Positions 1,815-52,682 of a DNA stretch of 54,213 bases are shown piece by piece (position 1 is the first letter of the stretch; each line of letters begins with the position of its first letter). The stretch is from a virus. Lineage: Duplodnaviria > Heunggongvirae > Uroviricota > Caudoviricetes. Where the stretch lies: the IMG/VR virus record IMGVR_UViG_2721755676_000004. One strand, 5' to 3'. The notes beneath the pieces were generated by a model that saw nothing but the letters and a program-made list of their open reading frames with translations, was not told the DNA's origin and did not search any database. The translations under genes and the position numbers were made by a program.

Positions 1815-4800
1815 TATGCAAGCCTCACAATATAGTTAAATGCGATGTTTTTGACGGTGTTTTCCGCGTTACCAGCAGCGTTAACGGTGATGGTGTGTCC
1901 ATGTGAACCAATCGCAACGGAGTGCGTATGAGCACCAATACCGACAGTATGCGCGTGTGCACCTGCAGATGCTGCTGTGCCGGACAGTGAGTGGCTATGA
2001 TTACCATCTGTACTGGTATTAGCTAACCACCCCGTAGACATACCTACTGAGCCTTGTACACCCCAGGTATTTTGACCTGAGCTTGTATAACCATATTGAT
2101 AAGTATCTTTAAAAACACTGGGGTTAAATCGACGGCCATCTCTATGGCTGTGATTACCAGCTGCATTCGTGCTGCCACTTAAACTATGGGTATGCGCACC
2201 AGTGTTATTCGTGGATTTAGTGCCGTAATCAAACGACGATGTGGTTTTCGTCCCCAAATCCGTACTGGATGCGCTGGCGCTGTGGGTATGCGATTTAATG
2301 CCGTCCTGTTCCTGAGACAATACGGCCCGACCACTGGCAGGTTTGCCCTTAATCGTCCAGCCACGCATATCAGGGATCACGCCTGACGGATAAGCCGCTG
2401 CAAGTTTCGGGTATGCAGATTTGTCAAAAGTCTGCCCCTGCATCAGGGCATAGCCAGACGGAACGGTATCTGATGGCCACGGGATTGGTGCACCGACTGG
2501 ATAAAACTCTGCAGGAGGATGAGCCGAGGTGTAAAGCTGCGCCCACGGCGACCAGTTTGCGTCGGTCGTATCCCGTCGTGAACGAATAAATGCCGGAGCA
2601 TGAGCACCGCTTGTACCACTCCAGCCGATGAGTAACTCACCTTCGCCAACGGCTGTCATCCCTTTCAGGTGAATGATATTTCCATACGCTGTTGGATATC
2701 CGTTGTTATACACCTCGTATAACTCAAGACCTGTTGCCCCCTGCGTATTGTCTGTCAGCGCGGTTACCCGACCTTTTGAAGACAGATTAACTGATGATAC
2801 TGCTGTTCCACCTGACGGTAATGCCCCGATCTCTGATGCCGTTGGCTTATTTCTGGAGTTATAGTCCCTTCGCCAGCCAGGTGAATAATCTGTTCCGTGA
2901 TTAATATAGGTAAACTGGGCGTTAGTTGTTCCGCCACCAGTGGAGGTAGTCGGTGTGGTAATGCGGATCGTCATCGCTGACTTTATCCCCATTACTTCAA
3001 TGACAGCTCCTGCGAGATGAATATTACCGCAGCCAGTATCAGTAATGATTTTATTATTGCCATAAGACCAGGAACCCTTGCACATCCAGTATGGATGGTT
3101 AAATGCTCCCTGAGAATCCAGCCACTCGATAAACTGTGCAGTCGTCCAGTCTCCTGTTGTTGTGCTTACTGACCCACCGAAGGCACGGCTGGCACCAATA
3201 TTTTTCGTAAAGGTGTCTTTGCCAGGGATATCCGCACCGTTCTTATCTTTCTGCAGACGTTTCTCAGCATTGTCATTGGCTGCTTTTACTGCCTTTGGCG
3301 TTGCTGCCAGCGTTTCAGACGTGCTGTTGGTCGCGCTGCTTAGCTGGACTATCCCTTTCTGTGCTGTCGTTGCATCCTGTGCGGTGTATTTCCCGTCAGC
3401 CAGGTCATACGCGGCCTTAACTGCTTTTGGCGTTGCCGCCAGTGACTCGGAAGTGCTGTTGGTCGCACTGCTGAGCTGTACTATCCCCTTTTTCGTCGTG
3501 CTCGCATCCTCAAGCGCCACGGCGGATGCAATATCCTCTGCCCGTTTTGCCGCTGTCTCAGCGCGCGTTGCCGCGGATTCCGCCGTACTTTTGCTCTGTG
3601 CTGCCGCCGTCGCACTGCCAGCTGCCTCTGTCGCCTTCGTGGATGCTGTCGTGGCGCTGCCCTTCGCTGCTGACGCTTGTCTGGTCGCCTCATCTTTTGA
3701 AGCAGACGCAGATGATGCCGATGACGCCGCCGAACTGGCGGACGATGCGGCAGCCGTTTTTGAGGATTCTGCGCTGGTTTCCGACGCTTTCGCGTTCGTC
3801 TCGGATGTCTTCGCTGCGGAAGCAGACCTCGCTGCTGCGCTGGCCTGTTCAGTGGCTTCGCCAGCCTTCGTTGTGGCTGTTGAAGCAGACGATGCGGCAC
3901 TTTCTGCCGATTTTCCGGCGGCGGTGGCACTGGCTGAGGCCTGCCCGGCACTTGTTGACGCGGCACTGGCAGACGACGCAGCCGCTGTTTTTGAGCCTGC
4001 CGCAGCCGAGGCGCTCTGTCCCGCTGCCGTTTCAGAAGACCTGGCGTTTGTCTCAGACGTCTTTGCCGCCTTCGCGGAATTGCCTGCCGCCGTTGCCGAG
4101 GAAGCGGCACTACTGGCGCTTGATGATGCGTTCGTTTCTGATGATTTCGCTGCCTCTTTTGAGGCCGCCGCATCCCGGGCTGAGGTGGCTGCTTCTGACG
4201 CCTTCGTGGTCGCGGCGGATGCAGAAGTGGCTGCTGATTGTTGTGACGCTGCCGCATTCGTTTCTGACGTTTTCGCCGCAGCGGCACTGGTAGCTGCCGC
4301 GCTTTTTGAGGACTCTGCAGCAGCAGCACTTTTCGATGCTTCACTGGCCTTTGTTGATGCCGTTCCTGCGCTGGAAGATGCTGACTGAGCCGACGACGCG
4401 GCCTGTCCGGCTGACGTGCTGGCTGCGCGTGCTGAGCCTGCAGCATCAGTCGCATGGGTTGCCGCCTCACGTGCTGATGTGCCGGCATCGCTGGCTGACT
4501 TCTTCGCGGCTGCCGTGTTCTGTGCCACCGCGGACGCGTTACGCACCACCTCTTCCACCATCAGTTCAAAACGGCGCAGAGCCTCCGGACGGGCATCATC
4601 CTCCGTCATGGCACCGAGAAAATCATTCAGCGTACCGGGTTGAGAATCTTCATACACGGTGATGGTCCCGGCATGTGACGGCGGGAATCCTTCCACCAAC
4701 AGAATAACGCTGTACTGACCGTACTCAACGTCCATGCTGTAACGCCCGGCTTCATCCGGATTTTCTGAGGCCAGCGTGTTTACCACCACCGTGGTACTGT

Positions 4801-32177: not shown

Positions 32178-32327
32178 TTCTTGCTCCTCAATCCATTAAA
32201 ATCTCAGCAATAGTAGTTGTTACGTCCGCCACTGGCTCAGAGCTGACTATCCGCTAAATTTAGCTCAGTGCCGTAGCTGTGTCAGAACAAACCTAAGCCG
32301 AAACCGTTTATTACAAAACAATAAATA

Positions 32328-32756
32328 TCAGGGTTTAAAATCCAGCACCCCATTTTGAAATACTTTATATACTTCCGGCGAAGGGGGGGCAGGTATATCA
32401 GCATTCTTTATCGCATTCATCGCTTCACGACATAAATCGAGGTCTCCACTTTCTCTTTTAACCTCCAGTAGAAGGCCATTCGGGGCCATATGCATTCTCA
32501 GTGTACACTCTTTTCCTGAATACTTACTCGCATCCCCGAACTGTTTTTCGATGGCGCTCTTGATTTGATGGGCATACAGACGGATATCCTCACTAACATC
32601 AGAAGTACGTTCAGATGAACTCACATACTGTGTCTCTATTGCTTTATCGGAGTAATATGATGTACGGTCATGATAATTTGTCGATACAGCATCAGTGCAC
32701 CCGATAATAATCCCACTAATAATCAACGTAAGAATTGATGCGCTACGAAAACCCAT
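32328..32756 (-). CDS. Lipoprotein with TolA domain III-like C-terminal domain (paralog 2)
   Basis: 142 aa; lipobox IIIGC; C-terminal YAHQIKSAIEKQFGDASKYSGKECTLRMHMAPNGLLLEV...PPSPEVYKVFQNGVLDFKP closely resembles the E. coli TolA C-terminus as I remember it. Confidence 0.7.
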   Translation of the reverse strand: MGFRSASILTLIISGIIIGCTDAVSTNYHDRTSYYSDKAIETQYVSSSERTSDVSEDIRLYAHQIKSAIEKQFGDASKYSGKECTLRMHMAPNGLLLEVKRESGDLDLCREAMNAIKNADIPAPPSPEVYKVFQNGVLDFKP

Positions 32757-33344
32757 TTTTCCTCACATATGTCATATAGTAAAGGATTATATATACCGTT
32801 GTTTTGGACGCTCAAACAGCGAATCAGATCAAATAAAACGCACATTTGTTAACATTTACACAAAGTCTGCGTGGGATATTCTGAAAGAATATCCATAATG
32901 TGGATAGAATCTATTGAAGTGCATGGTGCCGGGTGCCTCCCGGTGAACAAAATGTTCGTGATACCTGTCGGCGACAGAAAAGGTTAATGGTATCACCCCA
33001 CCGCACAGGGGGATTCACCATGCAGGAGTTTTCTTAGCAAACTCACTGCGCGCCCGGCAACTCCCAACCACATAAAATGCGGAGTTTGTGGTATTTATGC
33101 ATATAACTCGCAGGAATTATCTTAAAAAACTGATGTCGATCCGGATTAAAAAGAAGCAGGTCATCATCAGATGACTGGAAAAAAGGAAAACAAAAAATAC
33201 TCATCATACAGTTTTGATTGCAGGGATGAGCCTGCTATGCACAATATGCAGAATATAAGCAAGATAAAAATATGCAGGCATATTATTTCGGATTTTGTTA
33301 TTAACACAACCTTTTTAATAATCATTTGGCATACAATAAACCAG

Positions 33345-33373
33345 CCCAAAAAGAACCGCCTAAACAGGCGGTT
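33345..33373 (-). terminator. Rho-independent terminator candidate in Q-to-lysis spacer
   Basis: AACCGCCT-loop-AGGCGGTT hairpin followed by CTTTTTGGG on the minus strand; a TATAAT hexamer lies ~40 nt upstream on the same strand. Confidence 0.4.
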
Positions 33374-33693
33374 GGTCAATACAAAGGATGCTTCGTCTTT
33401 ATTATAGTAATCTGAGGCGTCGGGTGTCTTGTATCAGACAACATATTGTCCCGCTAAACAGCGAATTACAAACCACCCTGCAATGATCTCTCATCTCATT
33501 TTATATGAGTTGACGACATCAGGATAACGCATCATCAGCCCCTGCCAAGAAATATCAAAACTCCCGCCAGCAATGTGTTATCACAATATTGTAAAAAAAA
33601 CACAGCACCGAAACTATAACTGGTCTCTGTTATAATTTGGAGCAGAAAGACCAGTTGCCCAACTAGCAGCATTCTCCCCTGCTTTCCTGACGT

Positions 33694-33722
33694 AAAAAAA
33701 CCGCATTAAGCGGTTTTTTTAC
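33694..33722. terminator. Bidirectional terminator-like hairpin downstream of Q-like gene
   Basis: AAAAAAACCGCATTAAGCGGTTTTTTT: short GC stem flanked by A-run and T-run. Confidence 0.45.
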
Positions 33723-33800
33723 GATGTCCATGTCTGCAATCCGCCTCGCGATACAGCTTTGCGAAGCATAGCAAAATTGAAGCAGTTTATACGTAAGAAA

Positions 33801-34343
33801 TCAAGCCATTTTCTCAGCAAATGATTCACGCATGGGAATATATAGGGCATACTCAGCAACAGCTAACCAATTAGCAATCCGTTTTTCGCATGTGCTAAAA
33901 CACCACTCTGGGTGTGCATCATTTAGCAATTCAGCCATTTTGCGCTTAGTCATCCCCCGCCCTTCATAGCGTTGCCGGAGAATGCAAATCAATCCTGGAT
34001 GCTCTGCCAGCACCTCACTTATGACTCGATCAATACATAACGCCTCTGCATCAGTACAATGCGCCAGCCAGCTCTTTTGCTTGCCGTTGATCATCTCTCG
34101 CAAAAACGCTTCCAGCTCAGCTTTCTCTATTCCCGCTTTTTTCATTCTGCGCAGGGCTTCATTAATGGCTGTTTTCGTCAGTTTTTTGGATGCCAACAAC
34201 TGATTGAACATATTCCCTGACCTGCCACCGCCAATATACGACCAGCGCCCCCACATACGTAGTTTTCCCTGAATCCAGACACTTTCCAGCGTGGTGAGGC
34301 GAAGGTGTTCTCCGCTTTTTCCTGTATTCGTTGGGTAAATCAT
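33801..34343 (-). CDS. Putative late-gene antiterminator (Q-like by position)
   Basis: 180-aa basic protein immediately upstream of terminator/promoter-like spacer and lysis genes; family not confirmed; start may be internal. Confidence 0.4.
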   Translation of the reverse strand: MIYPTNTGKSGEHLRLTTLESVWIQGKLRMWGRWSYIGGGRSGNMFNQLLASKKLTKTAINEALRRMKKAGIEKAELEAFLREMINGKQKSWLAHCTDAEALCIDRVISEVLAEHPGLICILRQRYEGRGMTKRKMAELLNDAHPEWCFSTCEKRIANWLAVAEYALYIPMRESFAEKMA

Positions 34344-34630
34344 AAATGACCTTTCTTTCTCCAGATTTCTTGTGTGCGAAAAACCCCTTCAGCATGCATC
34401 AGGCGCAATTCTTCTTTGGTGTAATCGCTGGTTTTTACCCGCCCGTCGATTAGATCGTGGCATGAGCTACAGGCTATCGCCGCCTGCATATCGTGTGGTT
34501 TTGTCGCTGTTCCGCACGTCCCCGCCAGCCTGTAATGCGCCAGCACAGAGGTTTCGGGATTGTGATTGCAGTAGCCAGGGATTCTGATCTGGCACATCTG
34601 GCCTTTAGCCGCTTTACGTAAATTCACCAT
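34340..34630 (-). CDS. Cys-rich nin-region protein (YbcO/DUF1364-like)
   Basis: 96 aa; conserved Cys/His pattern (CQIRIPGYCNHNPETSVLAHYR...CSSCHD) resembling DLP12 YbcO. Confidence 0.55.
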   Translation of the reverse strand: MVNLRKAAKGQMCQIRIPGYCNHNPETSVLAHYRLAGTCGTATKPHDMQAAIACSSCHDLIDGRVKTSDYTKEELRLMHAEGVFRTQEIWRKKGHL

Positions 34631-35229
34631 TACGCAAACTCCAGTAGTTGTGCGGCCACATTTTCAACTTCCTCCTGAGAGGAGAATTTACGGAACAGAA
34701 TCCAGTTCCACAGCACATTCAGTACAGATTTATAAACCTGCTGAAACTCGACTTCGTCCATATTCGCAAAAGCGATGGATTTTGCCCGACGCCCACGGCT
34801 ACCGTCCGGATAAATATGCTCGGTGTAAAATCCGGCCTGAATGGTTACCCACTCGCGGAAAGCCTCAAACGACTTTAGCAACGCCGTATCCCGGGTTCTA
34901 CGAGTCGCAACGGTGTTAAGGTATTGCTCTGCGGCATCACTCAGGGCTGGCGTGTGTTCCCGACCAACTGATTCGCACAGGTAATCAACGAAACCAGACA
35001 GCAGTTCTCGTTCGCGAGGCGTGATCGCCCCACCGACCGGAGTCCAGTAATCGAATCCCAGTTGCAGGAGTTTGAAAAAACGCTTGTGGAATGCGTAGTT
35101 ACGCACACGCTTAAAGTCTGCGTGTATCCACTCACCTATTTTGATTTGATGCAGAAAATCGCAACTCTCCGGCGTCGCCGGGAGAAGTAAACCAGAAGAA
35201 GTTTGTTTGACCAGTTGTATATGCGCCAT
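34630..35229 (-). CDS. Hypothetical nin-region protein (possibly DUF1367-like)
   Basis: 199 aa; translationally coupled to the downstream gene; family assignment tentative. Confidence 0.45.
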   Translation of the reverse strand: MAHIQLVKQTSSGLLLPATPESCDFLHQIKIGEWIHADFKRVRNYAFHKRFFKLLQLGFDYWTPVGGAITPRERELLSGFVDYLCESVGREHTPALSDAAEQYLNTVATRRTRDTALLKSFEAFREWVTIQAGFYTEHIYPDGSRGRRAKSIAFANMDEVEFQQVYKSVLNVLWNWILFRKFSSQEEVENVAAQLLEFA

Positions 35230-35509
35230 TTCTCAATCTCTCGATGGCGCAGCGCAGCAGATGCCAGTTGTTCAGGCTGACGAATAAAGTATAAATAAAC
35301 TGGCTATGGTGTAAAGCCCCACATAGCATGAACAAACACTACATATCAAATAGCTGGTACAAGGATAGAAATACGACATTTATTATTAAAAACGATTAGA
35401 TAAATTACATTTTAATGTTATGCAAAAGTTCTTTTTTATCATAACATTTCAATAAAAGCATTACAGATGCAATCATCCCGTCATCATCAATTATTTAAGG
35501 TGGTTAAAC

Positions 35510-35596
35510 ATGGAAAATAACAAGTTCGCACATCTCGCTCCTTTTTTATCCGTAATCCTTTTCGCTTGTTGTTTTATATGGGCATTATTTTTATAA
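35510..35596 (+). CDS. Small hydrophobic peptide (28 aa), candidate small membrane protein
   Basis: ATG preceded by AAGGTGG at optimal spacing; MENNKFAHLAPFLSVILFACCFIWALFL; lies in a very AT-rich spacer. Confidence 0.3.
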   Translation: MENNKFAHLAPFLSVILFACCFIWALFL

Positions 35597-36042
35597 AGTA
35601 GCCACATGATAAGTTGCTGGAATCATATTTCCCACTCAAGTCATTAACATTTGATAAGATATATCTAAAAGGACGCCTTTACATTATTTATGTGTATATA
35701 ATTTATTTATATACACAGTAAAGGTATCCTGGGAAAATACTTATCGTTAAAAAATACATCATAAATAATCAAGCTGAAATTTCAGAACACAACTAATACA
35801 CACAATAAGGTTCAGTAACAATAATCTATGTGGACTACATCGAGATTTTTTGATTAAACTTTAATAACTTATTCCTAACACACAGAATGCATAAACTAAA
35901 AGTAAAACAAATAGTTATACGAAAAACAACCATATTTATTATATCTTCTCCTCTAATCAACATATCAATTATGTGTTTCATAACAGCTTGACATAACCCT
36001 CAAAAACACGCATTTATAATGCATGTTTTTGAGGAGGTGGTT

Positions 36043-36381
36043 ATGACACACAAGAGAATTCCTAAAGATTGGGTAATCAAACGCTCAACTCCGTTCTTCA
36101 CAAAAGAGAACGTACCTTCAGCGTTATTAACACATCATAATACAGCAGCAGGTGTTTTTGGGCAGTTGTGCGTAATGGAAGGCACTGTAACATATTATGG
36201 TTTTACTGATGAGAATGCTACTGAACCGGAGATAAAAGTAGTCATTAATGCTGGCGCTTTTGCAACAAGCCCACCACAATACTGGCACCGTGTTGAACTA
36301 AGCGATGATGCTCAGTTTAATATTAACTTTTGGGTCGCTCCAGACTTCTCGGGCGAAAAAGTCTATAGCACCAAAAAATAG
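36043..36381 (+). CDS. YeaR-like DUF1971 protein
   Basis: GAGGAGG SD before ATG at 36043; RSTPFF...VMEGTVTYYGFTDE...AGAFATSPPQYWH...FNINFWVAP resembles E. coli YeaR. Confidence 0.7.
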   Translation: MTHKRIPKDWVIKRSTPFFTKENVPSALLTHHNTAAGVFGQLCVMEGTVTYYGFTDENATEPEIKVVINAGAFATSPPQYWHRVELSDDAQFNINFWVAPDFSGEKVYSTKK

Positions 36382-37104
36382 ATGATCATATTAAAAATGC
36401 TTTAACAGTCAGACCCGGCAGGGCTATCCCCGACGGGTCTCATTTTTGTAAATATATTGGTTCTACATTGACAGGAGACTTCAACCATAAGAAGTAATCT
36501 GAATACTTGAGCAATAAATTTACTTAAGATTAATGAGCGCACCTTGCCGGACAAAGATAAACCAAGGTAACACCTTTTTTCTAGCCAGTATGTAATCAAT
36601 CAGAAAGCCGCTCCATAAGAACAACAGCAAGACAATAAATTGCCATTACAGCCGCAATAGCTAGCGCACATTTGAGAACCAGCACGACAACCTCCTGTAT
36701 TGGACGTACACCAGTTCTGATAAATATGAGGCTGTCTCATCATTGATTCAATATAACTATTGGGTATAGTTTCTGTGATTTTGTTCTGTAGAAATGGAAC
36801 ACAACAACCAGTCACCACCAGCACTTCTTTAAATACGCCAAGTCCGACGCAAGCTAACCTTCTAGTCCGCTTTGAGCGAGGAGCGGACCAAACCCGGCCA
36901 ACTGACTCTTAAAGGGGCCGCAGGAATTTTTCGTCTGAACTTTCGAAGCTCCTCTCCCTGAAGACAGAAAACTTCTGTGTGCTGTGGGAATATTGAATCT
37001 TTGCCTTAGATATAAATAATTTTATCCCGCCTGAAGTTTACATTATTTTATTTATCTGTTTTTCTAAATCAGACTGCACTCCTTACTTAAATCAGGAGCC
37101 AGTC

Positions 37105-38304
37105 ATGCCATTTGTTATTTATGTGTTTACTATCAGTGCCTTTGCGCTCGGACTCGCGGAATTTGTCCCCATTGGGCTGACAGACGTTATGGCTCAGGGG
37201 TTGTGTGTGGGTGTGGAGCAGACCGGGGCAGCGGTTACAACCTATGCACTGGGGGCAACGTTCGCGGCACCCGTACTGTCTGCGCTGACAGCAAGCTGGA
37301 GCCGGAAAAATGTAATGCTTACAACTGCCGTTGTGTTTACTGCCGGTAGTCTGGCGGCCGCGTTTGCAGCCACATTACCTCAGCTCCTGTTAGCGCGGTT
37401 CATTGCTGGTCTGGGACACGGCCTGTTTCTGGCTGCGGCATCCAGTACCGCAGCTCGTCTTGCTGGACCGGGTAAAGCAGGCAGAGCGGTGGCTGTGGTA
37501 TTTGGTGGCTTTACTCTGGCGATGGCAATCGGCGTACCGCTGAGTACATGGTTGGGGGGGGTGGTCTCATGGCGTCCAGTTCTCGGCGCTATTGCCGCTT
37601 TTGGCGCGTTCGGATTCCTTGGACTGTTGTTCGGTATGAAAGATCCCGTACGCAGCGTGCCCGGTGAACATAGTGACTCAGCAATGCAGAATATCGGCAT
37701 GCTGTTTAACCGTAAGTTGCTGGCCGGCGCGCTGGTTACGGTGCTGGCGTATGCAGGCTCGTTTACGGCTTACACCTTTATCGCACCTATTCTGACGCAG
37801 GTGACAGGGGTTACCGGAGCAACGGTGAGTCTGTTTATGCTGGTTTACGGTATTACAGCTGCGGTAGGTAATATTCTTGGTGGGAAACTTACCGACAGCA
37901 TGGGGGTTAATCGTGCCAATATACTCATCATTAGCGGCATTGTTGTTGTCGTGCTTGGTATGTGGCTGCTGTCATCCTCACCGGTGAGCATGGGCATTCT
38001 GGTTGCGCTGCTGGGTATGGTGACATTTGCCGCAGTGCCGGCACTGCAGGCCCGTCTGATTGGTGTCGCTGAGCAACATGCTCCTCATGCGCATGGTGTT
38101 GCTGCCGGCCTGAATATTGCGGGCTTCAACTCAGGTATAGCGCTGGGATCAGTACTGGGCAGCATTACTATAAGCCACGCCGGTATCGTGTATACCGGTA
38201 TCAGCGGTGCGATTGTTTCTCTGCTCGGCCTGCTGTTGCTGCTTGCACAAATCCGTCGCAGCCACAGTCGTAAATTTCAACAGGTTAAAATCGTAGGCCA
38301 GTAA
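37105..38304 (+). CDS. MFS transporter (12 TM)
   Basis: 399-aa polytopic hydrophobic protein with MFS-like loop motifs. Confidence 0.85.
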   Translation: MPFVIYVFTISAFALGLAEFVPIGLTDVMAQGLCVGVEQTGAAVTTYALGATFAAPVLSALTASWSRKNVMLTTAVVFTAGSLAAAFAATLPQLLLARFIAGLGHGLFLAAASSTAARLAGPGKAGRAVAVVFGGFTLAMAIGVPLSTWLGGVVSWRPVLGAIAAFGAFGFLGLLFGMKDPVRSVPGEHSDSAMQNIGMLFNRKLLAGALVTVLAYAGSFTAYTFIAPILTQVTGVTGATVSLFMLVYGITAAVGNILGGKLTDSMGVNRANILIISGIVVVVLGMWLLSSSPVSMGILVALLGMVTFAAVPALQARLIGVAEQHAPHAHGVAAGLNIAGFNSGIALGSVLGSITISHAGIVYTGISGAIVSLLGLLLLLAQIRRSHSRKFQQVKIVGQ

Positions 38305-38315
38305 AGGGAGGTTAT

Positions 38316-39008
38316 ATGCTTACCCGTGAAAATATGCTTAATGGCACATTTGTCAGGGTGCATGAAGCGCTGCTCCCGGCGAATATGCTCTGGGACGCTG
38401 AAAAAATACGCGCATCAATGAACTCTACTCTGGAGGAGCGCCCGACGGGTGCTCCTGTCTGGATATTTGCCTACGGGTCATTGATGTGGAATCCCGTGCT
38501 GGCGATTGAAGAAATGCAACGGGCCCGTCTGAAAGGATGGCAGCGCAGTTTCTGCATTCGTTTGATATCCGGACGAGCGACTCCTGATGTCCCCGGCAGG
38601 ATGTTATCGCTCGACGAAGGTGGAATTACCGAAGGTATTGCGTTCAGACTGCCGGAATCGACTCTTATTAATGAGCTGGAAATTGTCTGGACGCGCGAGA
38701 TGATAACCGGTCTTTACCGTCCGGTCTGGGCAGACGTTTCGCTAGGAAACGGTGAGGAAATTCAGGCGCTGGCTTTCGTATCAGACAGACTGCATCCGCA
38801 TTATGAACAGGACAATCTTACAGCGACCGTAGCGTTGAGCATCGCATCTGCCCGTGGAGACATTGGCACGAATGCAGATTATGTATGGAAACTGCAGGCC
38901 ACTCTGGGTGCGTTGGGAATACGGAATGATTACGTGAGTGAACTGGCCCTTGCTCTGCATGAGGCTCCCTGTAACGATAAACTTCATCAGCGAGGCGCTT
39001 CACTATGA
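38316..39008 (+). CDS. ChaC-family gamma-glutamylcyclotransferase-like protein
   Basis: 230 aa; VWIFAYGSLMWNP motif and overall similarity to E. coli ChaC. Confidence 0.75.
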   Translation: MLTRENMLNGTFVRVHEALLPANMLWDAEKIRASMNSTLEERPTGAPVWIFAYGSLMWNPVLAIEEMQRARLKGWQRSFCIRLISGRATPDVPGRMLSLDEGGITEGIAFRLPESTLINELEIVWTREMITGLYRPVWADVSLGNGEEIQALAFVSDRLHPHYEQDNLTATVALSIASARGDIGTNADYVWKLQATLGALGIRNDYVSELALALHEAPCNDKLHQRGASL

Positions 39009-39886
39009 GCCATCTGAGCCATCTGCGAACGTTTCTTGAGGCCTATCGCTCTGGCTCCTTTTCAAAGGCGGCAGAACTACTGGGCATCACTCAGCCCGCG
39101 GCGTCACAGCATATCCAGTCTCTTGAGACTCTGGTTGGTAAGCGTCTGTTTATCAGGCAGGCCAGAGGCGTGACGGCAACCGAAGCTGCGGATGAGCTTG
39201 CCCGCTCAGTTTCACCCTTCATTGATGGTCTGGAAGAAAAGCTGTCCTCTTTCCGGTCAGGCTCTGTACGCGGGGGAACAATTAATCTGGCAGGACCGCC
39301 AGATTTTATTCATTCCCGGCTTGGGACAGTAATGGCTCCACTAATGAAGGAGGGGTATCGCCTACGCTTTCATACCGGCAATAAGCAACGTATTTATTCC
39401 CTTTTGCATGACGGGAGCGCCGATCTCGCTGTTACCGCATCTATGCCTGATGACCGTCTGTACGGCTATGCACATCTACTGACTGAACGCATGCTCCTTG
39501 TTCATGCTCCCGCCATGTCAGAGATCATCGGATCAGAACCTGGTGCTGAAACGCTTGCCTCATTACCGCTGATTGCTTATGACGAAGAGTTGCCACTGAT
39601 TAGAGCGCTCTGGGCCTCCATGTTTCAGAGAGCCCCTGAGATGCAGGCTACATTCACCATTCCGGATTTACGTATTATCCGCGACTTGGTCTGTGACGGC
39701 CACGGGTGGACAGTGCTGCCGGATTATCACTGTGACAATGACCTGAAAAGTGGTCGCCTGATTTCAGTGACACCTGCAGACCTCGCTCCGACTAATCATC
39801 TTTATCTGGTCTGGAACAAAAGGACGGCTAATAACAGCCGAACCGCCTATGTTCGGGATTACATTCTTAAAACGTTTCCGCGTTGA
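39005..39886 (+). CDS. LysR-family transcriptional regulator
   Basis: 293 aa; N-terminal HTH (FSKAAELLGITQPAASQHIQSLE) plus LysR substrate-binding domain; overlaps ChaC-like stop. Confidence 0.85.
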   Translation: MSHLSHLRTFLEAYRSGSFSKAAELLGITQPAASQHIQSLETLVGKRLFIRQARGVTATEAADELARSVSPFIDGLEEKLSSFRSGSVRGGTINLAGPPDFIHSRLGTVMAPLMKEGYRLRFHTGNKQRIYSLLHDGSADLAVTASMPDDRLYGYAHLLTERMLLVHAPAMSEIIGSEPGAETLASLPLIAYDEELPLIRALWASMFQRAPEMQATFTIPDLRIIRDLVCDGHGWTVLPDYHCDNDLKSGRLISVTPADLAPTNHLYLVWNKRTANNSRTAYVRDYILKTFPR

Positions 39887-39932
39887 TGTTTGAAACGGAT
39901 GATTGGCGATGCGTATCATAAGTTACGTATGT

Positions 39933-39960
39933 CCGCTTCTGGCACAAAGCAGACGCCCAC
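39933..39960. repeat. 28-bp repeat copy A (TTGGCACAAAGCNGAC..CCAC core)
   Basis: Near-identical to 43606..43633, direct orientation. Confidence 0.5.
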
Positions 39961-40016
39961 TCTCACGCGAATGCTTTGCCCTTGACTTGCCAACAACCGT
40001 ATCGCTTGCTCCGCAA

Positions 40017-41309
40017 CTATGGTTTTTTATTAGAATCTTCGCCACTAAATAAATTATAATAAATTGATTTTATTAGATATCTATCAGAATCTATATGGTC
40101 AGCACGAGTAGCATGCTCTAATGTTTCAAATGCTAGGGTTTGTGCGGCTTCAGCAAAAATTCCAGGCCAACCCTTACTCAGCATCGACAGTCCTTTAAGT
40201 ACCCTTATCTGAATTTCCCTCATACTGGCACCATCGCGCGCAACAGGTGAGAAAAAGTCTTCAAGTAGATCGTTATTCTGAAGTGGTGCAACATGTACAG
40301 AAGGATATTTCACTTCTATTTCATCAGATTTATTCTGCGCGTAAGCGGAAAGTATACGTACACCTCTGCCAATGACATCAATGGCGGTTCCAGGATCGTT
40401 CACTGCGGGGGAAAGGGCTCGGCAGGCTATTTCGGCCATGACGCTAAGACAAAATCGGGGGTCCTGAGCAAATGAACGTACATCCGAGACAATAATCGTC
40501 TCAAGTAAATCGGTGCTGATTGATGACTCCTGGCCCTGACTCAGGTACAAAACTGGCGTGGACGGATGTATGAAACTGCCCGGCTGCGCCACGAGGTATA
40601 CATGACGGGGATCATTGGTCAGCAGCTTGCTGAGTTTCACCATATCAACATATTCAACATAGCCAATCTTTTTCGGATAAACTGCAACCGTTCCTTTCGG
40701 CTGTTCATTGTTCTCAAGCCATGGATATCCGCCGAGACAGGGATTTCTTGCTCTCGCAATAAATGTTTCGATGGCCGCCTGTTCTACTTTTGCCGTTGTC
40801 TCACCAACCCTCCCCAGAGAGGTCAAATGCTGTATCCAGCGAAGCAATGTGATGAGGATTAAGGCAATGACAACCAGTGTTACAATGAATAAAATGACTC
40901 TCCCCCTTTCTCCATAAGCTCCCATATTGAGGGCAATAATCCCTACCAGACTGAAGAGAAAAGAACCGATGAAGGTGGCCAGTACATTTTGTGTGGTGAC
41001 GTCTTCAACAACTAAACGAGTAGCTCTGGGAGTCACATTAGTAGTGGCTGAACCGTAGGCTGTGACCATGATGCTCAGCGAAAATGTGGTCACGGCCAGC
41101 ATACTCGATGCCAGTATGTTCAGAATGTTATCGACTGCTTCCGCACCAACCTTCACGGAAACCGACTCAGGTATCATTGATTTAAAAAGAATTGATAAAA
41201 GGGCCGTTATTATTGCGACAATTGCGAATAACGTTGCCCTGAACCATAGTTTTTTAAATGTCTGCTTCAGCATCCATTTCCAGCGTGAAATCATTCTGCA
41301 TTCTCTCAT
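40017..41309 (-). CDS. Integral membrane protein with C-terminal soluble domain
   Basis: 430 aa; several N-terminal TM helices; start may be internal. Confidence 0.6.
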   Translation of the reverse strand: MRECRMISRWKWMLKQTFKKLWFRATLFAIVAIITALLSILFKSMIPESVSVKVGAEAVDNILNILASSMLAVTTFSLSIMVTAYGSATTNVTPRATRLVVEDVTTQNVLATFIGSFLFSLVGIIALNMGAYGERGRVILFIVTLVVIALILITLLRWIQHLTSLGRVGETTAKVEQAAIETFIARARNPCLGGYPWLENNEQPKGTVAVYPKKIGYVEYVDMVKLSKLLTNDPRHVYLVAQPGSFIHPSTPVLYLSQGQESSISTDLLETIIVSDVRSFAQDPRFCLSVMAEIACRALSPAVNDPGTAIDVIGRGVRILSAYAQNKSDEIEVKYPSVHVAPLQNNDLLEDFFSPVARDGASMREIQIRVLKGLSMLSKGWPGIFAEAAQTLAFETLEHATRADHIDSDRYLIKSIYYNLFSGEDSNKKP

Positions 41310-41357
41310 ATTGCAGCCGGGATAAATAAATGCCGCCTCTGTGGCGGCATGTTGCTG

Positions 41358-43361
41358 TTAACGAACCAGATGCAGGAAGTGCAGGTGTTTTTCGTACTGG
41401 TCCAGTATGTCATTAATCAGCTGTTCCTGATTCCAGCCCATTACATCATAATTTTGGCCGCCCTCTTTGAGATAGACTTCAGCGCGATAATATCGATGTT
41501 GTTCACTCTGCTGCTCATCATTATCCAGCGCAGCGAGCGCGAAGGTCGGTGAGTTATACCCGCGAAGCCTCACTTCATATATATAATTCAGCTCGTTGCC
41601 CAAATCGACTTCAAGGCGAATACGATCCTCGGCGGCGTCACTGATGTGGCTTATCGTTCCCTGCTTGTTAAGTTCCTCCTGAACCAGCGTCATGGCGGGT
41701 TGGATAATGTCGTCCATAAAACGTTTCACAAGAGAGCGCTTCGGCAAATACGCGATATTGCGTAACCTTCTCTGCCAGGGAATTGGGTTACGTGCAGCCG
41801 TAGGAGCAATAGTCGCCATGCTAAGGCTTTCACGCTTGGTCAAATCCCGACGCAGGGCTTTTAACAGTCCGTATATGGATATTAATAAGATAACTGAGAA
41901 GGGCAATGCACTCGCTATCGTTACGGTTTGCAACGCACTCAGCCCCCCTGCGATCAGCAGGGCAATAGCAACAACGCCCATGAGCGATGCCCAGAAAATT
42001 CGCTGCCAGACGGGCGTGTTTGCCACCCCACCTGATGCCAGAGTATCCACAACCATTGCCCCCGAATCAGCAGACGTTACAAAGAAGACGATGACCATCG
42101 CCATTGCAATGAATGACAGCACGGAAGAGAACGGGAAATGCTCCAGGAAATTAAACAGGGCAAGCGCAACATCCTGCTGAACGGTATTGGCGAGGTCAGT
42201 GGCGCCCTGGTTCATGATGAGATAGATGGCGCTGTTTCCAAACACCGTCATCCACATGAGCGTAAAGCCGGCGGGAACAAACAACACGCCAGTCACGAAC
42301 TCACGAATTGTCCTGCCGCGGGAAACGCGTGCAATGAACATACCTACAAACGGCGACCATGAAAGCCACCATCCCCAGTATAATAATGTCCAGCCCCCCA
42401 GCCAGTTGCTCGACTTGGGTTCATACGCGTAAAGGTTGAACGTTTTACTCACCAGTTCCGACAGATAACCACCCGTATTTTCCACAAATGACTTCAGCAG
42501 AAGCACAGTGGGACCCAGGCACAAGACCAGCGCCAGGAGCAACACTGCCAGGCCCAGATTAAGCTCAGACAGGATGCGTATTCCCTTGTCCAGGCCGGAC
42601 ACCACCGAAATCGTCGCTAACCCCGTGATGACCACGATCAAAATGACCTGTACCGTTTCATTGATGGGCACGCCGAAAAGATGGTTCAAACCGGCATTCA
42701 CCTGCAATACACCGTAACCCAGCGATGTTGCAACGCCAAAGACAGTGCCTATCACGGCGAAGATATCAACCGCGTGGCCTATAGGCCCGTAAATGCGATC
42801 GCCGATAATGGGATAGAGCGCAGAACGCAGCGTTAAAGGCAGACCGTGACGGTAACTGAAAAAGGCCAGAATCAGCGCCACGATGGCATAAATTGCCCAT
42901 GCGTGCAGACCCCAGTGGAAGAACGTCAGGCGCATGGCTTCCTTCGCTGCCGCAACGGTCTCTGGAGTGCCGACAGGTGGCGAAAGATAATGCATCACAG
43001 GTTCGGCAACGCCAAAGAACATCAGGCCGATCCCCATCCCTGCCGAAAAAAGCATCGCGAACCAGGAGTGGTAGCTGAAATCAGGCTGCGCATGGTCTGG
43101 GCCCAGCTTTATATCACCGTAACGTGAGAGTCCAAGGAACGTGACGCTCAGTAAAATCAGGGCCACAGCAAGTATGTAGAACCAGCTGGCATTCGTGAAG
43201 ATTTGTTGCTGAAGTAGTTTAAAATTTTTGTCGGCGACATCCGGGAATACGGCGGCAAAGGCGACAAGAAGGAAAATTAGCAAAGCAGATGTAAAGAATA
43301 CCGCTTTGTTAATCTGGCTTGTAGACTTCTTTGGGGTTGTATCATTTTCACTCATAATCAT
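41358..43361 (-). CDS. BCCT-family transporter (BetT/CaiT-like)
   Basis: 667 aa; strong resemblance to E. coli BetT including WTLFYW/WWxAWSPFVG-type motifs and long cytoplasmic C-tail. Confidence 0.85.
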   Translation of the reverse strand: MIMSENDTTPKKSTSQINKAVFFTSALLIFLLVAFAAVFPDVADKNFKLLQQQIFTNASWFYILAVALILLSVTFLGLSRYGDIKLGPDHAQPDFSYHSWFAMLFSAGMGIGLMFFGVAEPVMHYLSPPVGTPETVAAAKEAMRLTFFHWGLHAWAIYAIVALILAFFSYRHGLPLTLRSALYPIIGDRIYGPIGHAVDIFAVIGTVFGVATSLGYGVLQVNAGLNHLFGVPINETVQVILIVVITGLATISVVSGLDKGIRILSELNLGLAVLLLALVLCLGPTVLLLKSFVENTGGYLSELVSKTFNLYAYEPKSSNWLGGWTLLYWGWWLSWSPFVGMFIARVSRGRTIREFVTGVLFVPAGFTLMWMTVFGNSAIYLIMNQGATDLANTVQQDVALALFNFLEHFPFSSVLSFIAMAMVIVFFVTSADSGAMVVDTLASGGVANTPVWQRIFWASLMGVVAIALLIAGGLSALQTVTIASALPFSVILLISIYGLLKALRRDLTKRESLSMATIAPTAARNPIPWQRRLRNIAYLPKRSLVKRFMDDIIQPAMTLVQEELNKQGTISHISDAAEDRIRLEVDLGNELNYIYEVRLRGYNSPTFALAALDNDEQQSEQHRYYRAEVYLKEGGQNYDVMGWNQEQLINDILDQYEKHLHFLHLVR

Positions 43362-43605
43362 TTATTCCATTAATTAAATCCGCACTGGATAGAAGGTACT
43401 ACCTCTCACAGAGTAGCAAAGTTCAACTGGCTATGCGGGGTTAATCGGAATGCATGGTGGAATGAGTGCCGATACAAATCATCCTATATTCTAAGGAGTT
43501 TTAAGTTACTCAGCCTGCCAATTACTGGGGCATTTAATTTGTATGATCTGTATCAAAGCTGGGATATAAGTTAAGTGAAGTATATTAGGCACGAATTACC
43601 AGCGT

Positions 43606-43633
43606 CTGCTCTTGGCACAAAGCGGACAACCAC
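43606..43633. repeat. 28-bp repeat copy B (TTGGCACAAAGCNGAC..CCAC core)
   Basis: Direct repeat of 39933..39960; sits upstream of the BCCT gene. Confidence 0.5.
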
Positions 43634-43695
43634 GCTAGCTCTACCCTGTGCCACAAAATGTCAATTTGCATCTGAACTAATGCACTTTAATCTCG

Positions 43696-44118
43696 TCACT
43701 TCAATAAATACCGAACATCCCCCTGATAAAACGACAATATGCGCTGCATAACTTCGCTCTTCCGGCACTCGCGACAGATTATGTTTAGGCGACTGTCGTA
43801 GCGACGTATTTCTCCGTCAGGTAATGACCAGATAAGGTCCGGATCAACCACAACCGGTTTCTTCAGCTTTGCCCTCGATAATTTTTTGCGGGCATTTTGC
43901 CAGTCTTTACGAGCCTGTTCAGACGGGAATAACCCGTAGCCAGAATTGTATACATCGCCACTGGCAACCAGCTCTCTGGCCAGAACGCTCATCAGATATC
44001 TTGTTGCCCCAGTTTTAGCTTCCAGTTGTCGTAACGTCTCGCGCCCACTCTGGCGTACGAGTTCAAGAACCTGCCCTTTAATTTTTTCCCGCTCTTCTTG
44101 TGTAAAAACTTTTGCCAC
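43696..44118 (-). CDS. Hypothetical early-region protein with C-terminal Cys cluster
   Basis: 140 aa; downstream of replication initiator; CRECR motif. Confidence 0.5.
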   Translation of the reverse strand: MAKVFTQEEREKIKGQVLELVRQSGRETLRQLEAKTGATRYLMSVLARELVASGDVYNSGYGLFPSEQARKDWQNARKKLSRAKLKKPVVVDPDLIWSLPDGEIRRYDSRLNIICRECRKSEVMQRILSFYQGDVRYLLK

Positions 44119-44158
44119 AAGCCCTCCTGAAAATTACCTCATGACCAGAAATTAACAC

Positions 44159-45235
44159 TTACCCCCTGAAGCCCGGCGGAATTTCGTTATCCGGTTCAGA
44201 AATATGATTCACACAACGCTGGTTGTTCGTGCCGCTTACCGGGAGCAACCAGGGGTTCTCAAAATTCCGGTCCGGTCCAAAAAACGTCGTCGCTCGCTGA
44301 ACAAATTCCGTTCCCGTTTTCCCGGTAGCCGCCAAGTATCTTGCGTAACGCCTCACGCCATCCAGCATGGCCTCTGGTGGCACCCCCTCGCGTAATCTGG
44401 CCTTCCAGGCACTGAAAGCGGATTTCTTCGGGTTTGCCCCAGCACGCAACGGGTACTCCCGCCAGACCTGTTCGAACACATCCGGATAATCCACTCGTCC
44501 CACAGACTGCCCGGTGTTTTCCGGGACTACCCGATCGGCTTCCCGCTGAATGGCGGAATCGGCTTCAGGCTGCTGCAGTTGGTGTGATTGCTCCGCCCTT
44601 GCGGTCATCACCTGCTGCACAGCGCCCGAATCGGCTTTCAGCGCATACGCTGAATCGGCTTCCGGTGTCGTGCCTGCTGGCTGACCAAGATTGACGGTCT
44701 GAACATCCCCTGCCTGGTTCGTGGCGTTTTTTACGCCATGGACCATAGTGTTTTGATCTTCTTGATCTGTATCTTTATCTGTATCTTTATCTGTCGTGAC
44801 TCGTCGTGACATGTGCGTGACATTTCGTGACGCGCCGTGACAATCGCCATTTTGTTCCCGCTTTCTTTCCCTCTCTCGCTGCGCCCTCTTGCGCTCTGCA
44901 GGAGATTTTGCGGTTTGCGAAATATTGCCGTTGTCCTCTTTAAGCACCTGGCGTTTTTCCCATCCAGTGATTAAATCACCATCAAGTACCCGCCCCTGCA
45001 TCGTCTGCAAAATTGAATCAATTACCTCTTCTGTCACGTCGAGCGCACTTGCCAAATCTTCTGTCGTGACATCAATGTGACCTCGCGTGACATTTCGTGA
45101 CGCGCTCACCAGGAGGTGGATATACACTGCCATCACTGTTGCAATTGGCTGTCCTGACACCCTGGCAATTGTTCGCCACTTAGGGTCATTTGGCATGTCA
45201 TGCCATAATCTGAGCCAGGCGTTAGCCATACTCAC
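44159..45235 (-). CDS. Phage replication initiation protein with internal iterons
   Basis: 358 aa; N-terminal winged-helix-like region, basic linker, C-terminal domain; contains two clusters of CGTGAC direct repeats. Confidence 0.65.
   Translation of the reverse strand: MSMANAWLRLWHDMPNDPKWRTIARVSGQPIATVMAVYIHLLVSASRNVTRGHIDVTTEDLASALDVTEEVIDSILQTMQGRVLDGDLITGWEKRQVLKEDNGNISQTAKSPAERKRAQRERERKREQNGDCHGASRNVTHMSRRVTTDKDTDKDTDQEDQNTMVHGVKNATNQAGDVQTVNLGQPAGTTPEADSAYALKADSGAVQQVMTARAEQSHQLQQPEADSAIQREADRVVPENTGQSVGRVDYPDVFEQVWREYPLRAGANPKKSAFSAWKARLREGVPPEAMLDGVRRYARYLAATGKTGTEFVQRATTFFGPDRNFENPWLLPVSGTNNQRCVNHISEPDNEIPPGFRG
44784..44831. repeat. Iteron cluster 1 (5 x CGTGAC at ~10-bp spacing), candidate ori
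   Basis: tgtCGTGACtcgtCGTGACatgtgCGTGACatttCGTGACgcgcCGTGACa; preceded by ATCTTTATCTGT tandem repeats. Confidence 0.6.
45061..45105. repeat. Iteron cluster 2 (CGTGAC repeats)
   Basis: ctgtCGTGACatcaatGTGACctcgCGTGACatttCGTGACgcg. Confidence 0.55.
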
Positions 45236-52285: not shown

Positions 52286-52480
52286 ATGAGATATGACAAT
52301 GTTAAACCATGTCCATTTTGTGGTTGTCCATCAGTAACGGTGAAAGCCATTTCAGGATATTACCGAGCGAAGTGTAACGGATGCGAATCCCGAACCGGTT
52401 ATGGTGGAAGTGAAAAAGAAGCACTCGAAAGATGGAATAAACGAACCACTGGAAATAATAATGGAGGTGTTCATGTATAA
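52286..52480 (+). CDS. ralR: RalR (Lar) restriction-alleviation / DNase toxin protein
   Basis: 64 aa from MRYDNVKPCPFCGCPSVTV; Cys4 motif. Confidence 0.7.
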   Translation: MRYDNVKPCPFCGCPSVTVKAISGYYRAKCNGCESRTGYGGSEKEALERWNKRTTGNNNGGVHV

Positions 52481-52682
52481 AATTACCGCCACTATTGAAA
52501 AGGAAGGTGGCACTCCTACTAACTGGACAAGATATTCAAAATCTAAACTAACGAAATCAGAATGCGAAAAAATGCTCTCAGGTAAAAAAGAAGCAGGCGT
52601 TTCCAGAGAGCAGAAAGTAAAACTGATAAATTTTAATTGCGAGAAACTTCAGTCCTCGAGAATTGCATTGTATTCAAATTAA
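52473..52682 (+). CDS. Small protein (69 aa), YdaC-like
   Basis: GGAGGTG SD before ATG at 52473; overlaps ralR end. Confidence 0.5.
   Translation: MYKITATIEKEGGTPTNWTRYSKSKLTKSECEKMLSGKKEAGVSREQKVKLINFNCEKLQSSRIALYSN

Follow-up and report, generated by a model that had tools for sequence, protein, structure and literature searches.

The stretch of DNA analysed here (the window) is the 54,213-nucleotide IMG/VR virus record IMGVR_UViG_2721755676_000004, a Rac-type lambdoid prophage of Escherichia coli in which two short repeats (copy 1 on the left and copy 2 on the right; window coordinates are used throughout) bracket two minus-strand genes that encode a DUF2254 membrane protein and a BCCT transporter. 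We find that this gene pair is carried on a cassette of about 3.7 kb, and that the two repeats are probably hybrid sites created when the cassette was inserted, by conservative site-specific recombination, into a site of the same family that was already present in a cargo slot of Rac-type prophages. The initial annotation of this DNA had proposed that the repeats could be remnants of a site-specific insertion of a two-gene cassette, and the proposal is well supported by the following: homology to four independent contexts begins or ends exactly at the repeats, and each repeat has an inner half that goes with the cassette and an outer half that goes with the neighbouring DNA.

Position and anatomy of the repeats

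Copies 1 and 2 were confirmed to lie in the same orientation closely outside the two minus-strand genes (40017..43361), at 39933-39960 and 43606-43633, where 22 of 28 positions are identical when they are compared in register; lengthening the comparison to 39931-39963 and 43604-43636 gives 26 identities in 33 positions and an exact common 11-mer, TGGCACAAAGC. The presence and orientation of the repeats were thus correctly described by the initial annotation, which missed that each copy is itself a dyad (GTCYGCT-N10-AGCRGAC) and that there are further copies at 36865 and, weaker, at 32224. When the window was scanned with the 24-nt consensus GTCCGCTCTTGGCACAAAGCGGAC, allowing at most three mismatches, three matches were found (0.00 expected from shuffles), namely copies 1 and 2 and positions 36865-36888 on the opposite strand, and a looser search with the arms gave a weak fourth site at 32224. 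Copy 1 (39929..39956, core 39931-39954, + strand) reads GTCCGCTTC-TGGCAC-AAAGCAGAC, and copy 2 (43602..43629, core 43604-43627, + strand) reads GTCTGCTCT-TGGCAC-AAAGCGGAC; we call such sites A-type. The site at 36865..36888 (- strand) is B-type; on the + strand it reads GTCCGCTTT-GAGCGA-GGAGCGGAC, its centre on the other strand is TCGCTC, and it forms the left edge of the prophage cargo slot. The weaker site at 32224..32247 (+ strand), GTCCGCCAC-TGGCTC-AGAGCTGAC, lies near the lysis genes, with a tolA-like gene fragment on either side, and has a third centre, TGGCTC, which is also present in four IMG/VR loci. Just to the right of copy 2, CCCTGTGCCACAAAATGTC (43640-43670) has the A-type centre in inverted form, GTGCCA, between decayed arms, and may be a relic second site.

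The site core can be written GTCCGCTnn-TGGCAC-nnAGCGGAC. The sequence logo adds two bases at either end of this 24-nt core (A, Y ahead of G1 and A, T after C24, most clearly outside the enterics), which gives arms ATGTCCGCTnn and nnAGCGGACAT around the asymmetric centre TGGCAC, that is, an 11-6-11 arrangement of about 28 bp that matches the layout of simple tyrosine-recombinase core sites. Arm positions 4 and 21, which face each other, show no covariation (Watson-Crick pairs number 57 where 59 are expected, and 109 where 117.5 are), and this favours duplex half-sites that are recognised independently over a hairpin selected as RNA or as single-stranded DNA.

In enterobacterial elements there are two main centre classes, A (TGGCAC) and B (TCGCTC), and B sites nearly always have the opposite orientation to A sites. 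A typical slot is laid out B-...A+, with A+/B- doublets 42 nt apart separating adjacent modules; in the window only the larger unit from 36865 (B-) to 43604 (A+) has this inverted arrangement, copies 1 and 2 being direct (A+, A+). The dominant right-hand anchors of the sites in IMG/VR loci are the DUF977 flank of lambdoid prophages (52 sites, each at most 700 nt from a DUF977 homologue) and the gene-G flank of P2-like phages (29 sites). The right flank tgtcagattagg was considered as an anchor in the YeeP-GTPase island and was ruled out as such by its assignment to the gene-G side of P2-like phages. Counting sites of at least about 91% identity in 5426 complete E. coli genomes, we found a copy of any kind in 2422, with a median of one and a maximum of four per genome, so that in E. 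coli the motif is not the common genome-wide REP-like (repetitive extragenic palindromic) element as which the initial annotation thought it might turn out. The K-12 element CP4-57 has one decayed copy only, after yfjW.

Several other identities for the repeats were tried and rejected. A transposon target-site duplication does not agree with copies that are only 79% identical around a cassette that is 99.6% conserved between contexts, nor with inner and outer halves that differ in history. ARAGORN gave no match in the window to a tRNA or tmRNA whose fragment could have served as an island attachment (att) site. TGGCAC resembles the -24 box of a sigma-54 promoter; at -12 the sequence reads GGAC where TTGC is expected. 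A lambda-type boxA (CGCTCTT) would overlap site positions 8-9, which are the most variable ones.

The cassette in other contexts

Measured from centre to centre, the cassette spans 39946..43618 (- strand, about 3.7 kb) and contains the DUF2254 and BCCT genes and their own 242-bp upstream region. It was found elsewhere as follows: a YeeP-GTPase/Ag43 island (locus L003 in our numbering) shares window positions 39929-43632 at 99.6% identity, and the IncFII plasmid pM71902 (L008) shares 39929-43628 at 99.7%; a P2-like prophage (L103) has the right-hand 2.76 kb (40896-43653) at 99.5% identity in its Z/fun slot, adjoining the tail-fibre-assembly gene G; and a leuX-side island of E24377A (L004) has a 94% variant that begins at 39935 and is cut at its other end by an insertion sequence (IS). 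These four independent contexts have the cassette segment in common and nothing beyond it. The homology of L003, L008 and a further locus, L124, to the window starts at 39929-39935, and in lambdoid prophages that do not have the cassette the similarity to the window is limited to the part that begins at 43604 and runs to the right. On the left side of the site such prophages have AbiH and a gene of unknown function, TPR and DUF262 genes, single unknown genes, or only about 230 bp.

In E24377A (L004 6986-7016) and in about 960 other E. coli genomes, the roughly 30 nt to the left of the left site resemble the right end of the cassette (GCAGAATTAGCAACGTTTGCTTTTGGCAC), and the junction on the left of this chromosomal cassette variant (92-94% identity) has the look of a circle junction.

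Where the joints fall

Taken together, the E. coli and IMG/VR loci gave 92 distinct combinations of the two arms of a site with its two flanks, and the IMG/VR loci alone have no fewer than 65 different left flanks. When the combinations are grouped by right flank, the groups with two or more different left flanks have a constant right arm (positions 16-24) in 48 of their 48 members, compared with 13 of 48 for the commonest left arm, and when they are grouped by left flank the left arm is constant in 16 of 18. The arms therefore stay with their own flanks across the 92 contexts, and this places the breakpoints in the six-base centre. For example, right arm AAAGCAGAC with flank gcccactctcac is constant beside at least seven different left neighbours, and flank cgaattaccagc with arm GTCTGCTCT is constant across at least four right-hand contexts. 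One left neighbour of 2.8 kb (99.8% identity) directly adjoins, across the site, the P2 gene-G flank in L018 and the cassette in L124. The B-type site at 36865 behaves in the same way: its left arm and centre are common to five prophages (including L005, L006, L009 and L011), and its right arm and everything beyond it differ among them. All of the joints are placed within the invariant 6-bp centre or at its border, a pattern that fits conservative site-specific recombination.

Applied to the window, this analysis divides copy 1 into a left arm that belongs to the neighbour on the LysR side and a centre and right arm that belong to the cassette, and copy 2 into a left arm from the cassette and a centre and right arm from the prophage backbone downstream of the DUF977 gene. 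Are the two copies then the products that an exchange between two intact sites would have given? Swapping their arms back restores complementarity at positions 4 and 21 in both products, with GTCTGCT...AGCAGAC predicted for the cassette circle (junction sequence ACCAGCGTCTGCTCTTGGCACAAAGCAGACGCCCAC) and GTCCGCT...AGCGGAC for the empty target. The predicted empty-target 24-mer, GTCCGCTTCTGGCACAAAGCGGAC, occurs 14 times in IMG/VR loci and is one of the two commonest variants there.

A candidate recombinase

Some of the loci that carry the sites also encode a protein of 200 amino acids, residues 35-184 of which match the Pfam Phage_integrase catalytic domain, with the HxxR...H...Y residues visible. 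Its closest models are those of Xer proteins, and it scores far below their cut-offs (54 bits as against 220 for the Xer/integron model). The family is large and its degree of conservation is unusual, with 76-92% identity across enterics, Idiomarina and Cycloclasticus, and the gene is present in 885 of the 5426 E. coli genomes. A B-type site precedes the ATG by about 40-65 nt in every E. coli or IMG/VR locus whose copy of this gene has an identity of 82% or more (L003 866-1531, L005 3201-3866 and L261-L290 are such gene loci; the protein of L003, at 866-1468, is WP_001752951.1). This site is half degenerate: its gene-proximal arm reads ATAAGGGAC or TTTCGGGAT, its distal arms and flanks are of at least 12 different kinds, and homology between loci starts at its centre. 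Among more distant homologues (60-64% identity) four of seven have a recognisable upstream site, with a centre of the TGACCC class, and a homologue of 57% identity in an alphaproteobacterial metagenome-assembled genome (MAG) has an A-type site at -148. The Proteus and Idiomarina loci with the 200-residue gene have further sites within 1.5-10 kb. From this association we infer that the small Xer-like protein is the best candidate for the enzyme that acts on the sites.

Sites in P2-like phages

A search of sequenced phages turned up the core in P2 itself and in P2-EC46. Phage P2 (L328) has a B-type site, GTCTGCTTT-GAGCGA-GGAGCGGAC, at 1403 beside gpFI and an A-type site, GTCTGCTCT-TGGCAC-AGAGCGGAC, at 3001 beside gene G, and the two bracket the Z/fun genes. 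Inverted repeats around the P2 Z/fun region were reportedly described by Nilsson, Karlsson and Haggard-Ljungquist in Mol Biol Evol 21:1 in 2004. In the "Z-region" entry of P2-EC46 (GenBank AJ512680, 2002-2004) the cores lie at 92-115 and 3166-3189 within the annotated "left/right inverted repeat", at the inner ends of these repeats. A review (PMC8987985) states that the P2 Z/fun repeats allow site-specific exchange of fun, and it proposes exchange of accessory genes between phages and enterobacteria, much as we do here. A paper in which P2/P4 hotspots were mined for anti-phage defence genes (PMC9122126) cites the 2004 work only for variable loci. By their 24-nt cores the window's repeats belong to the site family noticed earlier around P2 Z/fun, and the exchangeability ascribed to Z/fun contents is found for the window's own cassette, which occurs in Rac, an island, a plasmid and, in the P2 slot itself, the P2-like prophage L103. 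The two cases differ in that the host here is a lambdoid (Rac) prophage and that the cassette lies between two direct A sites, whereas the P2 pair is an inverted A/B pair.

In the searchable literature we found no match to 15-mers of the sites, no description of them by concept apart from the P2 work, and no account of an enzyme or mechanism for the site family. Relative to the accessible literature, what appears to be new is the definition of the site to the base, its two classes of centre, the anchor in lambdoid prophages, this particular cassette and the places to which it has moved, the connection with a small recombinase and the occurrence of the sites outside the enterics.

Sites beyond the enterics and their cargo

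A wider scan used one genome per species, and its results are given here as they stand among the matches listed. These include Serratia, Pantoea, Klebsiella, Citrobacter, Enterobacter, Mixta and Rahnella, many alphaproteobacterial MAGs (Pseudolabrys, Xanthobacteraceae, Hyphomicrobiales and Methyloceanibacter), and Nitrosomonadaceae, Amphritea and Pseudomonas. In the non-enteric genomes there are as many as 14 sites with the same arms within 8 kb, their centres being TGGCAC and TGACCC, and the sites separate groups of one to three open reading frames (ORFs) of diverse ordinary functions (127 Pfam families in 148 ORFs). Sites are co-oriented within a locus, 35 of 38 loci being pure as against 6.6 expected. 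These arrays may be cassette arrays or a strand-biased intergenic repeat. Dense ones, between ordinary metabolic genes, are present in MAGs of soil Alphaproteobacteria and Nitrosomonadaceae (L134-L252, e.g., L159, L144, L182 and L183), and several short MAG contigs stop exactly at a site.

Much of the cargo at the sites looks defence-related. The E. coli slots hold AbiH and DUF262 genes, and in a Proteus mirabilis island in icd (L258/L259) the sites and the gene of the small recombinase lie among genes for AbiJ, SIR2-STAND, Mrr-STAND, AbiGi and YaaC.

Prophage setting and neighbouring genes

The window is 100% identical to E. coli strain 2017.15.01CC from 39000 to 44500, and the genes that flank this region in that strain are the terminase and lysis genes and trkG through recET, ralR, xisR, intR and ttcA. 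The otherwise identical segment of 2017.15.01CC (L001 6449-11866) contains an IS1A copy that is missing from the window at about 32250-36860, with a coordinate offset of 776 bp. Rfam matches above the gathering threshold in the window are the RalA antitoxin small RNA, IS009 and STnc100, at 52479-52657, 1273-1471 and 32865-33053, respectively. The cargo slot with the repeats has on one side the replication module, which ends with the DUF977 gene (43696..44118, - strand), and on the other the nin/Q-type late-regulation genes; the 3' flank of the DUF977 gene is the commonest right-hand anchor of A-type sites. On the + strand the order is backbone, site 36865, a three-gene module, copy 1, DUF2254/BCCT, copy 2 and DUF977, and this arrangement is carried by about 320 of the 5426 E. 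coli genomes.

Within the cassette, the DUF2254 gene (40017-41309, - strand; Pfam 1.6e-92) is preceded by the BCCT gene (41358-43361, - strand; Pfam BCCT 7e-199), whose product belongs to the NCBIfam BetT subfamily (752 bits, cut-off 695). The 48-bp gap between the two contains, at 41330-41350, a perfect GC-rich hairpin of 8 bp whose tails are T-rich on either strand, and the terminator scan found it terminator-like on both strands. According to ORFs and annotation, the neighbouring module between the B site and copy 1 (36889..39930, + strand) encodes a major facilitator superfamily (MFS) transporter (37105-38304), a gamma-glutamylcyclotransferase (GGCT; 38316-39008) and a LysR regulator (39005-39886). 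The Rac prophage of strain TA8571 has, in place of the MFS/GGCT/LysR module, TPR and DUF262 genes with sites at the borders of each.

Discussion

The mechanism that we infer from comparative anatomy is as follows: a cassette with the DUF2254 and BetT-like BCCT genes would have inserted at a pre-existing site of the same family in the slot between the replication module and nin/Q. Exchange within the centre would have joined the left arm of the neighbour to the right arm of the cassette, giving copy 1, and the left arm of the cassette to the right arm of the backbone, giving copy 2. The inverted B-class site (TCGCTC) at 36865 bounds the other side of the slot, so that whole [B...A] segments could be exchanged as well. 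The enzyme would act in trans and would be the 200-residue Xer-like tyrosine recombinase, which has a catalytic domain only and is encoded outside the window. Where the boundaries lie, that arms segregate with their flanks and that the contexts are many can be read directly from the genomes compared; the chemistry of the exchange, like the enzyme, is put forward here as what would account for them.

A genome search with the repeats shows that they mark cassette boundaries elsewhere, one of two things that the initial annotation had thought such a search could reveal. Several points weigh against this insertion mechanism. The other thing that such a search could have revealed, an empty LysR|DUF977 site, was found neither in the 5426 E. 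coli genomes (searched with a synthetic junction) nor in metagenome contigs (exact 39-mer). Nor was a circle or tandem junction found in the E. coli genomes (synthetic junction) or metagenome contigs (exact 36-mer). The array looks fixed in about 300 Rac carriers, with no sign of current activity. The window encodes no recombinase of the candidate kind, only six of about 130 site-bearing loci have one within reach, and that gene may be merely another passenger cassette. Few arm positions are polymorphic, and a crossover confined to the centre is not strictly separable from a short-homology exchange.

This last point leads to the alternative that the sites are boundary sequences with some other function and that cassettes are exchanged only incidentally, when RecA or a phage recombinase (RecET of Rac, a Red-like or an Erf-like enzyme) recombines short homologies. 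Rac does encode RecE and RecT, most site-bearing loci have no small recombinase nearby, and neither excision circles nor empty sites were found in the E. coli genomes and metagenome contigs. In addition, relaxed recombination by phage recombinases of the Rad52-like type is established (PMC3945230). Exchange of this sort does not explain why the arms always remain with their own flank, or why the same architecture is found where these recombinases are not shared, in P2-like phages, in islands and plasmids and in distant Proteobacteria. The uninterrupted identity of partner sites is, moreover, often no longer than 7-15 bp, much shorter than RecA or Red needs. Finally, the two centre classes stay distinct and in fixed relative orientation, which is to be expected if the centres have to match in strand exchange. 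For these reasons we think that short-homology recombination is unlikely to be the explanation. Each copy can also be folded as a stem of 7-9 bp, doublets 42-45 or 91 nt apart exist, and ordinary metabolic genes of soil Alphaproteobacteria often have the motif between them, in the manner of REPs, so the repeats might be hairpin signals for single-strand transposition or REP-type propagation (by IS200/IS605 TnpA or by REP-associated tyrosine transposases, RAYTs), with the repeats as subterminal hairpins of a non-autonomous element. We consider this very unlikely, since the half-sites segregate with their flanks and the breakpoints are thus inside the palindrome and not beside it, the stem has no compensatory covariation, and the copy number in E. 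coli is very low. The sites are also almost always co-oriented within loci (35 of 38 pure), whereas REP elements, of which a genome contains tens to hundreds in its intergenic regions, often form inverted doublets and are linked to a RAYT.

The initial annotation had offered as its other possibility that the repeats are paired binding sites for the adjacent LysR protein. Operators of the LysR type are dyads with a T-N11-A core close to the promoter that they regulate. A dyad would suit a dimeric DNA-binding protein, and copy 2 is about 245 bp upstream of the BCCT start codon, where an operator of LysR or of another transcription factor could control the BCCT/DUF2254 operon. Copy 1, on the other hand, lies between two convergent 3' ends, the LysR gene is in a separately bounded module, the same sites bound the cassette in L003, L004, L008 and L103 with no LysR gene adjacent, and they bound unrelated genes, dozens of cassettes of them, in more than 90 contexts; these comparisons do not support the operator idea, and we give it almost no weight. 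Small GC-rich palindromes in intergenic DNA could in principle be transcription terminators or a structured RNA element, or their similarity could be due to chance. However, no T-run follows either copy on either strand and the terminator scan calls neither; the repeats have no Rfam match at the gathering thresholds in the window, nor one even at E<=1 over both intergenic regions; and chance is excluded by the expectation from shuffles and by recurrence in many genomes. Explanations of this group are extremely improbable. Insertion by conservative site-specific recombination at a site of the same family is therefore the reading that we prefer.

How does such a system compare with known ones? 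Xer/dif-like sites, those of pdif modules and IMEX among them, have 11-bp arms for XerC and XerD on either side of a centre of 6-8 bp. The pdif modules of Acinetobacter plasmids, which are bounded by XerC/XerD-binding sites, are similar in being recombinase-less gene modules with 28-bp 11-6-11 sites that occur in many contexts and are served in trans. The arms found here appear to be unrelated to those of dif or pdif (GGTGCGCATAA / TTATGTTAAAT), and the candidate here is a stand-alone recombinase of 200 residues rather than the host XerC/XerD. Integrons likewise have arrays of cassettes of one to three genes between co-oriented imperfect palindromes, and a tyrosine recombinase gene that is closely preceded by a specialised, half-degenerate site, so that the layout of the small recombinase gene and its upstream site resembles intI/attI. 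Integron attC sites, however, are 57-141 bp long as against 24-28 bp here, and their GTTRRRY core is absent in or beside both copies. They consist of R''/L''...L'/R' boxes and are served by IntI, which carries a specific insertion of its own and is encoded nearby or in trans. The present sites also give no evidence of a folded single-strand substrate, the cassette carries its own upstream region, and the candidate recombinase has no N-terminal domain and falls far below the integron and Xer cut-offs. The PeSLs, mobile regulatory cassettes of T4-type phages, probably act by homologous recombination. In the present case the promoter scan called no promoter at copy 1 or copy 2 and the breakpoints are confined to the 6-bp centre, whereas PeSLs are units of a promoter and a stem-loop (PMC2839356); they are similar in that short repeats with stem-loops flank variable genes in hyperplastic regions of phage genomes, where modular shuffling was proposed.

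A broader proposal, which we make tentatively and hold to be rather less probable than its opposite, is that the 28-bp sites and the 200-residue recombinase constitute a Proteobacteria-wide, integron-independent system of cassette capture and exchange. It would have at least two heterospecific classes (TGGCAC and TCGCTC, with TGACCC outside the enterics), would work both by insertion of circles and by exchange of segments between replicons, and would reload the cargo and defence hotspots of P2-like and lambdoid prophages; the arrays in soil Alphaproteobacteria and Nitrosomonadaceae would then be large chromosomal cassette arrays.

The searchable papers on such hotspots, PMC9122126 included, do not state how hotspot contents are exchanged. 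The present analysis ties one concrete cassette of a lambdoid prophage to repeats that were noticed in P2 in 2004, indicates that the same cassette moves among Rac, P2-like phages, islands and plasmids, and names a candidate enzyme that can be tested. If the assignment of the enzyme is true, it would account for the shuffling of accessory and defence genes among enterobacterial mobile elements, and would provide a compact pair of recombinase and site with natural heterospecific variants. The value of the finding is as a lead to the enzyme and to the way in which prophage cargo slots are reloaded.

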